Below, piece by piece: positions 19,983 through 23,299 of a DNA stretch of 32,000 bases (position 1 is the stretch's first letter; each line of letters begins with the position of its first letter). Below the pieces are notes generated by a model that saw only the letters and a list, made by a program, of their open reading frames with translations, was not told where the DNA came from and ran no database searches. Source of the stretch: Mycobacterium tuberculosis H37Rv (GTDB lineage Bacteria > Actinomycetota > Actinomycetes > Mycobacteriales > Mycobacteriaceae). Location: contig NC_000962.3 in the NCBI RefSeq assembly GCF_000195955.2, positions 3,840,001 through 3,872,000 of the forward strand, given 5' to 3'. A program made the translations under genes and the position numbers.

Positions 19983-20011
19983 TCGGACGCCCCGCGCCGC
20001 GTCGGGGTTCC
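19983..20011 (-). promoter_or_regulatory. ECF-sigma (SigM-like) promoter candidate, leaderless transcript
   Basis: The minus strand reads GGAAC (20011-20007) - 18 nt - GTCCGA (19988-19983) - ataggc - ATG (19976). It lies directly after the glmM stop. Confidence 0.6.
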
Positions 20012-20023
20012 AGCATTTCCGGT

Positions 20024-21370
20024 TCAGCGCGCGGTGCTCACCGCGTCGGCGACCGTGGCCGCCAGCCGCTGGGCGACGCCCTCGTCGGCTGCCTCCACCA
20101 TCACCCGAATCATCGGCTCAGTTCCGGACGGGCGCAAGAGGATTCGACCCGTGTCACCCAGCTCGGCCGCGGCCTGCTCGACCGCCGTTCGGACCGAGGG
20201 CGCCGCGGCGGCGGTGGCCTTGTCGACAACCTCGACGTTGATCAGCACCTGCGGCAACGTCCGCATCGCCGACGCCAGGTCGGACAACGACGAGCCGGTC
20301 TGCACCATGCGGGTCATCAACCGCAGCCCGGTGACGATGCCGTCACCGGTGGAGCCCAGCGCCGGCATGACGATGTGGCCGGATTGTTCGCCTCCGAGGC
20401 TGTAGTCACCGGCCCGCAGCTCTTCGAGGACGTAGCGGTCACCGACGGCGGTTGTACGCACGGTGACGCCGGCCGAGCGCATGGCTAGGTGCAGCCCGAG
20501 GTTACTCATCACGGTGGCCACCAATGTGTTGCAGGCCAACTCACCGGCCTCTTTCATTGCCAGCGCCAGCACCACCATGATGGCGTCACCGTCGACGAGG
20601 TCACCGTTGGCGTCGACGGCCAGGCACCGATCGGCGTCTCCATCATGGGCCAGGCCCAGGTCGGCCCGATGGGCGAGCACCGCTGCCCGCAGCGGGTCAA
20701 GGTGAGTCGATCCACAGCCGTCGTTGATGTTGCGTCCGTTGGGTTCGGCGTTGATCGCGATAACCCGGGCACCGGCCGCTCGGTAGGCGCGCGGAGCCGC
20801 CGACGACGCGGCCCCATGAGCGCAGTCGACCACCACGGCCAGGTCATCGAGCCGGGCGGTGGCGGCCTTGGCCACGTGGCGCAGGTAGCGTTCGGTCGCA
20901 TCCTCGGCGTCGATAACGCGGCCAATCCCCGCGCCGGCCGGCCGCAACCCGGGTCCGCGGGAGACGCCGAGGACCAGATCCTCGATCTGATCCTCGGTGT
21001 CGTCATCTAATTTGTGGCCGCCGGGCCCGAAGATTTTGATGCCGTTATCGGGCATCGGGTTATGCGACGCCGAGATCATCACCCCGAAGTCGGCGTCGTA
21101 GGCGCCGGTCAGATAGGCCACCGCGGGGGTCGGCAACACCCCGACCCGCAGCGCGTCGACGCCCTCACTGGTCAGGCCGGCGATCACGGCGGCCTCCAGC
21201 ATCTCGCCGCTGGCCCGCGGATCGCGGCCAAGCACCGCGACTCGCCGACCCGGTGCGCCCGACCTCGACAATCGTCGCGCCGCCGCGGCGCCCAGTGCCA
21301 GGGCCAGTTCCGCGGTCAACTCGCGATTGGCGACACCGCGCACACCATCGGTGCCAAACAGTCGACCCAT
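20024..21370 (-). CDS. glmM: phosphoglucosamine mutase
   Basis: 448-aa ORF with the active-site motif [13 protein letters not shown] and [12 protein letters not shown] at the N-terminus. Confidence 0.95.
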
Positions 21371-21494
21371 ACGGACAACCTTTCACAGTTGACGGCTGCG
21401 CACATATCCACTCTTGGCAGCGAATATGCCTGTTGGTTCACCGACACGCCGACGAGCGCACACAAACATGCACGCTTGTCGCCCGAAAGTGATG

Positions 21495-21950
21495 TCAGCG
21501 CTTGCTGTACTGGGGCGCCTTGCGGGCCTTCTTCAGGCCGTACTTCTTGCGCTCGGTGGCGCGTGGATCACGGGTCAAGAAGCCGGCCTTCTTCAGCGCG
21601 GGCCGGTCCTCCGGCGATACCAGAATCAATGCCCGGGCGATACCCAGGCGCAGCGCGCCGGCCTGACCCGACGGGCCGCCGCCGCCCAGGTGGGCAAAGA
21701 TGTCGAAACTTTCCACCCGATCCACGGTGACCAGGGGTGCCTTGATCAACTGCTGGTGCACCTTGTTTGGGAAGTAGTCCTCCAAGCTGCGGCCGTTGAG
21801 GTCGAACTTGCCGGTGCCGGGCACCAGCCGCACTCGTACCACGGCCTCCTTACGGCGCCCAACGGTCTGGATGGGCCGCTCCAACACGAACGATTGTGCG
21901 GGCCCGGCCGGGGCCGCCGGGGTTTGCGGGGCTGGGGTGGTTTCGGTCAT
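21495..21950 (-). CDS. rpsI: 30S ribosomal protein S9
   Basis: 151 aa with the C-terminus ..[17 protein letters not shown]. Its ATG overlaps the rplM stop (ATGA). Confidence 0.95.
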
Positions 21951-22390
21951 TGCGCCACCTGCTTGAGCTCGTACGGAACCGGCTGCTGAGCGCTGTGCGG
22001 ATGCTCCGGGCCGGCGTAGACGCGAAGCTTGCGCTGGATCTGGCGGCTGAGCCTGTTCTTGGGCAACATGCCGAGGATCGCCTTTTCCACCACGCGGTCG
22101 GGGTGGCGTTGCATTAGCTCACCGATGGTGCGCTTGTGCAGGCCGCCGGGATACCCCGAGTGCCGGTAAACCATCTTGTGCTGCAGTTTGTCGCCGCTGA
22201 TGGCGACCTTGTCGGCGTTGATCACGATGACGAAGTCACCGCCATCGACATTGGGGGCGAACGTCGGCTTGTGCTTGCCGCGCAGCAGGTTGGCCGCCGC
22301 GACGGCAAGGCGGCCAAGCACCACGTCCGTGGCGTCGATGACGTACCACGATCGCGTGGTGTCACCCGCCTTGGGCGCGTACGTGGGCAC
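21947..22390 (-). CDS. rplM: 50S ribosomal protein L13
   Basis: Start at GTG 22388-22390 ((M)[19 protein letters not shown]...), 147 aa. The 265-aa track ORF is an extension through the leader. Confidence 0.93.
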
Positions 22391-22518
22391 AGCGCTTACC
22401 TTCTTTTCTCTCGGGTGGATCCCGGGGTGCCCCGGGCGCCGGTCAGGCGTGAACGGCGGGTTGGTCTCGGCGAACCGACATTGACCCGAGGTCCCGGCGT
22501 ACCGCACGCCAACCGAGC

Positions 22519-22548
22519 AGCTTACCGACGAGCATCCACGCAGGTCAA
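22519..22548 (-). promoter_or_regulatory. sigma-A-type promoter candidate for rplM-rpsI(-glmM)
   Basis: The minus strand reads TTGACC (22548-22543) - 18 nt - TAAGCT (22524-22519). This leaves a leader of about 120-130 nt before the rplM GTG. Confidence 0.5.
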
Positions 22549-22553
22549 AATGA

Positions 22554-22594
22554 CTGTGTGGTCCCGACGGCTCTCCCCCGTCGGGACCACACAG
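22554..22594 (-). terminator. intrinsic terminator candidate downstream of esxT
   Basis: Perfect 17-bp stem ctgtgtggtcccgacgg / ccgtcgggaccacacag with a 7-nt loop. On the minus strand it is followed by tcatttt. Confidence 0.65.
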
Positions 22595-22623
22595 GGGTCT
22601 GTTGCGCGCTCCGGGGCCCGGAA

Positions 22624-22926
22624 CTAGCGTGCCCAAGCTCCAGCCGCCCGCCGGTCGGCATGCGCCACGTCGTCGGCACCGTGGCGAACCGCGTTTCCCA
22701 AGTCGATCAGGATCTCGTTGAGCGCGCTGGCCGCCTGGTGCCACTTGAGTTGCTCCGCGTGGTAGGCGGCGGCCGCTTCCCGTGTCCAGAGCTGCTGCAA
22801 CGGCGCGATCTGCGACCTCAGCTCTTGCAGCGCAGCGTTGAAACGGGCCGCGGTGGTGTGGATCTCCTGACGAACGGAGTATTCGATGGCGTCAAAGTTG
22901 TACGACAACACGGGGTCTGCGTTCAT
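22624..22926 (-). CDS. esxT: ESX-4 WXG100-family protein EsxT
   Basis: Start at ATG 22924-22926 ([16 protein letters not shown]...), 100 aa. The helix-turn-helix size class fits, and the turn reads [10 protein letters not shown]. It lies 20 nt downstream of esxU. Confidence 0.9.
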
Positions 22927-22946
22927 AGTCGAGGCTGATCCTCGGT

Positions 22947-23264
22947 CTATAGGTCGCCGCCGGCGGCGGCGATGTGGCGGGCATGGATTTGGCCGGCTTC
23001 CCGCAGCGCGGCCTCGTTGTGGCGGATGGTGTCGGCGATCGCGTGCAGGACGTGGTAGAGCCGCGTCGACTCGGCGTTCCAGCGATCCACCACATCCTGG
23101 AACCGAGCGGCCGCGAGCCCACCCCACACCGACGGCGGCACACCGCTCATGCGGCCGATGAATGCCTGCAGCATCGCACGGATTTCCTCATTGCGGGCGT
23201 CCGTGATACCCGCAACCGAACGCATCAGGTCAAAGTCGGCGTTCAGCGTGTTCGGTGTGCTCAC
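22947..23264 (-). CDS. esxU: ESX-4 WXG100-family protein EsxU
   Basis: Start at GTG 23262-23264 ((M)[18 protein letters not shown]...), 105 aa. The WxG motif is [11 protein letters not shown]. Confidence 0.88.
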
Positions 23265-23270
23265 ATCAAG

Positions 23271-23299
23271 TAGGACCGCCGCCAACCTCGTCTGGTTCC
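23271..23299 (-). promoter_or_regulatory. ECF-sigma (SigM-like) promoter candidate for esxU-esxT, leaderless
   Basis: The minus strand reads GGAAC (23299-23295) - 18 nt - GTCCTA (23276-23271) - cttgat - GTG (23264). Confidence 0.6.

Follow-up and report, generated by a model that had tools for sequence, protein, structure and literature searches.

Conserved SigM-type promoters upstream of esxU-esxT and of the gene pair Rv3440c-Rv3439c in Mycobacterium tuberculosis

The extracytoplasmic function (ECF, group-4) sigma factor SigM of Mycobacterium tuberculosis recognizes promoters for which two consensus sequences, GGAAC-N16-18-CGTCR and GGGAACC-N17-gtCcgA, have been published (Raman et al. 2006; Agarwal et al. 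2007; quoted here as tabulated in Chauhan et al. 2016). Overexpression of sigM is reported to elevate esxU expression 1800-fold and esxT expression 60-90-fold (with reference to Raman et al. 2006), and the Rustad overexpression table gives totals of 38 genes up and 17 genes down for sigM. Upon deletion of sigM, the esx-4 genes reportedly drop 2-4-fold. In Mycobacterium abscessus, RNA-seq of a sigM-rsmA deletion mutant and of a SigM-expressing strain yielded 15 direct target loci with the common -35 element GGAACCG, and transcription at each target climbs immediately beside the promoter site; the direct targets include operon 13 (Mab_3747c-3745c) and operon 14, esxUT (Mab_3754c/3753c; Canestrari et al. 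2026). Here, we analysed a stretch of 32,000 nucleotides of M. tuberculosis H37Rv (contig NC_000962.3, positions 3,840,001 to 3,872,000; termed the window and numbered from its first base), in which two sites of this type precede, on the minus strand, esxU-esxT and the gene pair Rv3440c-Rv3439c. We consider it probable (roughly 0.8) that both sites are functional ECF-type promoters read by the SigM-RNA polymerase, with the first base of the start codon at +1.

Two sites of one geometry and the sigma factor that fits them

Read base for base on the minus strand, Rv3440c is preceded by GGAAC (20011-20007), the spacer cccgacgcggcgcggggc, GTCCGA (19988-19983) and ataggc, followed by the ATG (19976), and esxU by GGAAC (23299-23295), the spacer cagacgaggttggcggcg, GTCCTA (23276-23271) and cttgat, followed by the GTG (23264). 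The arrangement GGAAC-N18-GTCC(G/T)A-N6-start, which the initial annotation had described for both genes, is indeed identical at the two sites, and their elements are as follows.

20007 to 20011, minus strand: -35 box GGAAC of the Rv3440c promoter, GGAACC with the next base, 12 nucleotides past the glmM stop codon
19983 to 19988, minus strand: -10 box GTCCGA of the Rv3440c promoter; the preceding C gives CGTC, and the hexamer equals the published SigM -10 element gtCcgA exactly
19974 to 19976, minus strand: ATG start codon of Rv3440c, its first base being the predicted transcription start
23295 to 23299, minus strand: -35 box GGAAC of the esxU promoter, GGGAACC in context
23271 to 23276, minus strand: -10 box GTCCTA of the esxU promoter (ortholog consensus GTCgtA)
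23262 to 23264, minus strand: GTG start codon of esxU, predicted +1

Two exact matches to GGAAC-N18-GTCC[GT]A are present in the window as compared to 0.04 expected from shuffled sequences, and 1 of 100 shuffles reached two. The full pattern is thereby significant, whereas the loose core GGAAC-N17-19-GTCC, likewise found twice in this GC-rich window versus 0.99 expected, is not. Scaling of 0.04 per 32 kb to 4.4 Mb would give roughly 5-6 chance matches genome-wide, and the motif alone is for this reason not decisive. Since the loose core is not significant, the significance rests on the full -10 hexamer, the fixed distance to the start codon and, above all, conservation. With the pattern GGAAC-N16-19-GTC, six sites are found in the window, and these two only combine the full hexamer with a position at a gene start. 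Strings resembling GGAAC-N16-GTC also recur inside glmM, about 120-150 nucleotides upstream of the real site (window 20100-20125 and orthologs); located in the conserved 3' coding part of the gene, they would represent false positives of motif scans that are due to coding constraint.

Written with their flanking bases, the Rv3440c site reads tGGAACC-N17-GTCCGA and the esxU site GGGAACC-N17-GTCCTA, the last spacer base being c and g, respectively. Both fit the SigM consensus without a difference in kind, and they fit no other consensus in the tabulation of Chauhan et al. (2016), which spans every M. tuberculosis sigma factor. Real ECF promoters might still be read mainly by another ECF sigma factor, be it SigE, SigH, SigL, SigJ or an uncharacterised one. 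SigE and SigH promoters share the -35 element GGAAC or GGAAY and the general ECF architecture with the sites in the window, CGTC-type -10 elements are known for SigJ and SigL, and the authors of the M. abscessus study, where no regulon operon was wholly SigM-dependent, speculated about a partly redundant sigma factor. However, SigE (gGGAACYa-N15-16-cGTT) and SigH (gGGAAYA-N16-17-cGTT) need the -10 element cGTT at a spacing of 15-17 nucleotides, whereas the family described here carries (C/G)GTC[C/G]nA 17 nucleotides after GGAACC; SigL (TGAACC-N16-CGTgtc) needs TGAACC, yet the first G of GGAAC is invariant here, and SigJ (GTCACA-N16-CGTCCT) needs GTCACA (consensus sequences from Chauhan et al. 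2016). Moreover, esxU, which carries exactly this promoter type, shows the strongest induction by SigM of all genes, and the same motif is present in the SigM-responsive promoters of M. abscessus. We therefore regard it as improbable that another ECF sigma factor is the main reader of these sites.

Taken together, the fit to the consensus, the conservation described below and the literature on esxU and on M. abscessus argue for ECF promoters of the SigM type at both genes, as had been proposed from the two boxes at the outset, and the dependence of esxU and esxT on SigM, then given as reported, is in line with the induction values and the deletion phenotype quoted above. At window positions 24500-32000, which harbor eccC4, eccD4, mycP4 and eccB4, no further SigM-type site was found, even when a relaxed pattern was applied to the divergent eccC4/eccD4 region, although these apparatus genes are among those reported to drop 2-4-fold upon deletion of sigM. 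The window thus contains two SigM-type sites only, which parallels the esx4 locus of M. abscessus, where esxUT is the sole direct SigM target promoter (Canestrari et al. 2026), and direct SigM action within the ESX-4 locus of M. tuberculosis may likewise be limited to esxUT.

Conservation of boxes, spacing and start codon

Using a profile of Rv3440c homologs, 80 syntenic loci of slow-growing Mycobacterium species (L001-L080) were retrieved, in which the gene order is Rv3446c-like, esxU, esxT, rplM, rpsI, glmM, Rv3440c-like and Rv3439c-like. In the 882 kb covered by these loci, both strands included, GGAAC-N18-GTCnnA occurs 147 times, with 79 occurrences upstream of an Rv3440c homolog, 63 upstream of esxU and 5 elsewhere. 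On this distribution and the shuffle counts, a chance origin of the two sites was rejected.

Upstream of the Rv3440c homologs the pattern was found in 77 loci, the hexamer being GTCGGA in 60 and GTCGAA in 12 of them, and an in-frame ATG lies exactly 6 nucleotides past the hexamer in 72 of the 77. When the 64 distinct promoters of this type were aligned without gaps (consensus c.GGAACCccg.cgcg.c..c.gGCGTCGgAttaGGcATG), GGAAC, CGTC, the last A of the hexamer and the ATG were invariant, whereas the spacer drifts. Likewise, the motif is present upstream of esxU in all 64 loci (spacer N18 in 62 and N19 in 2), the start codon is located 6 nucleotides past the hexamer in 48 of them, and the consensus reads aa.....tGGAACC.aa.g.....cg..g.gGTCgtA.ttggtaTG. 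Four further loci that contain glmM, the EspC-like gene corresponding to Rv3440c and the gene of about 465 codons corresponding to Rv3439c stem from fast growers (Mycolicibacterium moriokaense, M. stellerae and two metagenomic contigs). All four harbor GGAAC-N18-GTC(CTA/GAA/ATA)-N6-GTG/ATG at the EspC-like gene, with unrelated spacers. Hence, the conservation of both boxes, which the initial annotation had suggested as a check, extends across the slow-grower loci and, for the EspC-like gene, to the fast growers as well. Invariant boxes and an invariant start codon flanking a free spacer are the pattern to be expected for a sigma factor binding site with a fixed start point.

The block upstream of Rv3440c could also have been kept for a reason other than promoter function, for instance as a glmM terminator hairpin or an operator, its likeness to the esxU site then being coincidental. 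The -10 region GCGTCGG has a complement in the 5' half of the spacer, CCGnCGC, of many orthologs (window 19983-20006; L001-L080), 75.8% of the cells pair in this register as compared to 23-54% in slid registers, and the mean folding energy amounts to -11.9 kcal/mol for the Rv3440c promoters versus -6.9 for the esxU promoters. However, the invariant columns are the two sigma boxes and the ATG rather than the stem, and true covariation is scant. Moreover, the M. tuberculosis region itself, with its -10 element GTCCGA, folds no better than shuffled sequence (z +1.55), the boxes and their spacing recur at esxU, where such a repeat is absent, and the fast growers keep the boxes with unrelated spacers. 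In view of the scant covariation and the folding result for M. tuberculosis, a spacer hairpin acting as glmM terminator or operator was set aside, and we deem this explanation very improbable.

Most esxU promoters contain an A-rich tract (gaaat/aaatt) 5-12 nucleotides upstream of GGAAC (L001-L080; window 23300-23315), which matches an A-rich region in the M. abscessus SigM logo. The Rv3440c promoters lack this tract, the corresponding space being filled by the glmM stop codon.

The Rv3440c-Rv3439c pair and its likely counterpart in M. abscessus

The transcription units that follow the two promoters, and the gene located between them, comprise the following features.

19665 to 19976, minus strand: Rv3440c, 103 amino acids, probable EspC-family helix-turn-helix with a C-terminal YxxxD (homologs, Pfam and AlphaFold2 (AF2) model)
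18259 to 19662, minus strand: Rv3439c, 467 amino acids, with a GTG start at 19662, 2 nucleotides after the Rv3440c stop
22947 to 23264, minus strand: esxU, WXG100 (Pfam PF06013, E 8.7e-14)
22624 to 22926, minus strand: esxT, WXG100 (Pfam PF06013, E 1.6e-10)
22554 to 22594, minus strand: intrinsic terminator past esxT, a 17-bp stem followed by a T run (terminator scan)
20024 to 21370, minus strand: glmM, phosphoglucosamine mutase (Pfam PGM_PMM domains I-IV), its stop codon located just ahead of the Rv3440c promoter

Among the neighbouring genes, rpsI and glmS were also identified (Pfam), the gene upstream of esxU belongs to the type VII secretion-associated Rv3446c family (NCBIfam), and the open reading frames next downstream of Rv3440c-Rv3439c are located on the opposite strand. 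No RNA family was detected at window 17900-24000 (Rfam).

The initial annotation had left the gene pair unassigned. Instead, homolog names, PF10824 matches and sequence motifs indicate a probable EspC-family protein and a WxG-containing partner that resemble type VII substrates. The homologs of Rv3440c are named "type VII secretion target" or "ESX-1 secretion-associated protein", and all 24 aligned family members match the EspC family PF10824 (best E 7e-13). The AF2 model of Rv3440c is a two-helix hairpin with helices 13-43 and 47-102 (predicted local distance difference test score 82.6), and the invariant Y91 is part of the motif YAEAD (YxxxD) in the C-terminal helix. Rv3439c, which is 100% identical to M. 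tuberculosis protein clusters, is modelled by AF2 with a helical bundle of good confidence at its N-terminus (residues 1-220); the approximately 230 residues that come next are disordered and rich in Ala, Pro, Asp and Glu. The motif W92-T-G94 is located at the turn between helices 57-91 and 95-149, W92 and G94 being invariant in 28 homologs, and the protein shows a weak similarity to WXG100 (E 0.23). Invariant in the same homologs is the C-terminal motif TPCEIAAD; likewise, the last approximately 15 residues, TPCEIAADELPQAG (window 18259-18310), are invariant and predicted to be helical past the poorly conserved disordered stretch, and this C-terminus is a candidate for a functional or recognition motif.

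A bipartite signal of mycobacterial type VII substrates, WxG together with YxxxD/E, has been described for proteins of the M. abscessus regulon (Canestrari et al. 2026). Judged by sequence and structural models, Rv3440c-Rv3439c looks like a substrate-like pair of this kind, consisting of an EspC-like hairpin and a WxG partner. EspA-EspC (Rv3616c-Rv3615c) and PE25-PPE41 likewise combine a helical hairpin of about 100 amino acids carrying YxxxD/E with a larger WxG partner; the order of the genes, small then large, is that of PE-PPE and unlike that of espA-espC.

The closest counterpart appears to be operon 13 of M. abscessus. Mab_3747c codes for a small protein that resembles EsxB and carries YxxxD/E, and the product of Mab_3746c is PE25/PPE41-like with a WXG motif (Canestrari et al. 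2026). As in the M. tuberculosis pair, a small EspC/EsxB-like protein is combined with a larger WxG partner, and both are encoded downstream of esxT with a few genes in between. Mab_3745c is a third gene of the M. abscessus operon, whereas the M. tuberculosis unit is a gene pair. In UniProt, B1MG76 (MAB_3747c) bears the name "ESX-1 secretion-associated protein" that is also given to Rv3440c homologs, and the published quantitative PCR primers for MAB_3747c encode LSFGGA and EADYAK, which match the family-invariant L41-x-F43-x-G45 and Y91-A92. In one fast-grower locus (L081) two extra genes are inserted between rpsI and glmM; counted from esxT (3753c), a like layout would number the gene after glmM 3747c. 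Upon exposure to PQS, MAB_3747c is upregulated together with esxT, esxU and sigM. We infer that Mab_3747c-3745c is likely the ortholog operon of Rv3440c-Rv3439c.

Some observations weigh against the pair being a SigM-controlled unit of this kind. With 17.2 bits (E 0.007), M. tuberculosis Rv3440c scores below the curated PF10824 cut-off of 23.5 bits, and in a Foldseek search against the PDB neither model had a significant match, chains of PPE41 being only weakly similar (E 0.16-0.47); membership of the pair in the PE/PPE or EspA/EspC families would be putative. The orthology of Mab_3747c is based on gene numbering and position, annotation and the motifs encoded by the primers rather than on a full-sequence alignment. 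Both genes are reportedly included in the original SigM overexpression and regulon tables of M. tuberculosis. In the accessible literature on this organism, the regulon papers of 2006 and 2007 being outside the search, no SigM-response data for Rv3440c or Rv3439c were found. Further searches were negative as well: the PDB sequence-profile search gave no match for the pair, NCBIfam gave none for Rv3440c, no entry from Mycobacteroides or M. smegmatis was among the homologs listed, and literature text searches on Rv3440c/Rv3439c returned unrelated mentions only and no secretion data.

Predicted leaderless starts, mapped transcripts and a model for co-regulation

At both sites only 6 nucleotides (ataggc and cttgat) separate the -10 hexamer from the start codon, which leaves no room for a Shine-Dalgarno sequence; the earlier statement that neither start codon is preceded by one at a usable distance is borne out by the minus-strand sequence. 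In solved complexes of ECF sigma factors with their promoters, the -10 hexamer usually spans about -12 to -7. With a 6-nucleotide gap, the first base of the start codon would therefore coincide with +1. The conservation of this distance, together with that of the esxU N-terminus, argues that the placement of the start codon would be under selection, and we infer a leaderless start in M. tuberculosis for both genes. In M. tuberculosis, leaderless mRNAs were described as common in the transcription start site (TSS) studies of Cortes et al. (2013) and Shell et al. (2015), and both genes would resemble them, with ATG or GTG at the predicted +1 and no Shine-Dalgarno sequence. Most of the mapped leaderless genes have SigA-type TANNNT promoters, whereas here an ECF promoter is concerned and the predicted TSS is absent from the published maps as far as they are listed.

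These maps are a further point on the opposing side. The Rv3440c start, H37Rv 3859976, corresponds to window 19976 (TSS 3860102 is placed at -126 from Rv3440c by Shell et al. 2015), and 3863264, given as a start codon in the table of Cortes et al. (2013), to window 23264; the row labels of that table are misaligned in its text form, and rows were matched by coordinate instead. Among the TSSs listed in the accessible parts of these tables, none is located at 19976 or 23264, the positions at which the initial annotation had expected them; the overlay revealed 20102 and 23163 instead. The former (H37Rv 3860102, minus strand; Shell et al. 2015) lies 126 nucleotides upstream of Rv3440c inside the 3' end of glmM, whereas the latter (3863163, minus strand; Cortes et al. 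2013) is a primary TSS 101 nucleotides inside esxU that was attributed to esxT, with a 2.9-fold increase in starvation. Both maps derive from cultures under standard or starvation conditions, in which SigM reportedly shows hardly any activity; taken with the scope of the tables, this makes the absence of the predicted TSSs weak evidence. The TSS at 20102 is preceded by GATGAT, and a transcript starting there would carry the Rv3440c ATG internally and without a Shine-Dalgarno sequence. At -12 to -7 of the TSS at 23163 we noted GATGCT, an ANNNT-like element, and this TSS could yield esxT-only transcripts independent of SigM.

As to the esxU start codon, Table S3 of Cortes et al. (2013) contains a proposal to re-annotate it to the ATG at 3863225 (window 23225). 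Read from the GTG at 23264, the N-terminus of EsxU is conserved and stop-free in 49 loci, including the 13 residues upstream of the ATG at 23225, which supports the annotated GTG, as judged from the comparison of orthologs. In two fast-grower loci (L081:1559-1625 and L084:1868-1935), the conserved esxU promoter is followed by a leader of about 35 nucleotides with a GGAAAGG or GGAAGGA Shine-Dalgarno sequence. The leaderless state of esxU thus appears to be a derived feature of the slow growers; the EspC-like gene, in contrast, would be leaderless throughout slow and fast growers.

The promoters might also be real without the mRNAs being leaderless, either because transcription starts at 20102 and 23163 or a few nucleotides off the start codons, or because the true start codons lie downstream, as proposed for the ATG at 23225. 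The published TSSs, as far as they are listed, the re-annotation and the fast-grower leaders speak in favor of this view. On the other hand, the N6 distance with an in-frame ATG or GTG is kept in 72 of 77 and in 48 of 64 loci, respectively, the 13 residues ahead of the alternative esxU ATG are conserved as protein, neither gene has a Shine-Dalgarno sequence at a usable distance, and the maps were made where SigM is inactive. Starts away from the two annotated codons are consequently unlikely in our opinion.

Given promoters that start transcription at the start codon, we propose that release of SigM from its anti-sigma factor RsmA would switch on both units together. The SigM transcripts would lack a 5' untranslated region as well as a Shine-Dalgarno sequence and would be translated directly from the 5'-terminal ATG or GTG. 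esxU-esxT would form a self-contained unit, consisting of the SigM promoter, leaderless esxU, esxT and a strong terminator, because the terminator with its 17-bp stem closes the transcription unit. The second promoter would drive Rv3440c-Rv3439c, whose translation would be coupled by the stop and start codons 2 nucleotides apart. Besides the Esx pair, ESX-4 would thereby receive another candidate substrate, namely the EspC-like hairpin (YxxxD) and the WxG protein as a composite type VII secretion substrate. In this model, Rv3440c-Rv3439c would depend on SigM in M. tuberculosis, and its secretion would presumably depend on ESX-4.

A further idea, which is possible but rather doubtful, concerns the leaderless design as a gate. 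Rv3440c, which lacks a Shine-Dalgarno sequence, begins just past the strongly expressed rplM-rpsI-glmM operon, its promoter starting 12 nucleotides after the glmM stop codon; its ATG would therefore be untranslatable on read-through transcripts from glmM, and only a SigM-dependent start at the ATG would yield protein. The pair would then represent an ancestral glmM-linked ESX-4 effector pair. The order glmM, EspC-like gene and gene of about 465 codons is kept in all 84 related loci examined. In M. moriokaense (L082) and M. stellerae (L083), the block from rplM-rpsI to glmM, the EspC-like gene and the gene of about 465 codons is retained together with a SigM-type promoter, and aldehyde and alcohol dehydrogenases are located upstream of rplM instead of ESX-4. 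The pair is thus kept in Mycolicibacterium genomes although ESX-4 genes no longer lie next to it, and its linkage to glmM is consequently more conserved than its linkage to ESX-4.

The regulatory logic described here is essentially known: the SigM consensus dates from 2006-2007, esxUT is the canonical SigM target, and direct SigM control of a similar operon has been reported for M. abscessus. The present analysis confirms this logic and gives it comparative depth, but it is not a discovery in itself. What is added is the genus-wide footprint of both promoters, in which the start codon is fixed nearly universally at the predicted +1; in addition, the comparison of orthologs backs the esxU start as annotated, and the pair is described as a candidate substrate of the EspC-like/WxG kind. 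SigM and ESX-4 are under active study both in M. tuberculosis, with regard to the control of other ESX systems, the export of the CpnT toxin and heme use, and in M. abscessus, with regard to survival in the phagosome. In this context, the two predicted transcription start sites are an exact and testable prediction, and the shared, conserved SigM-type promoter marks Rv3440c-Rv3439c as a priority candidate for an ESX-4 substrate in M. tuberculosis.

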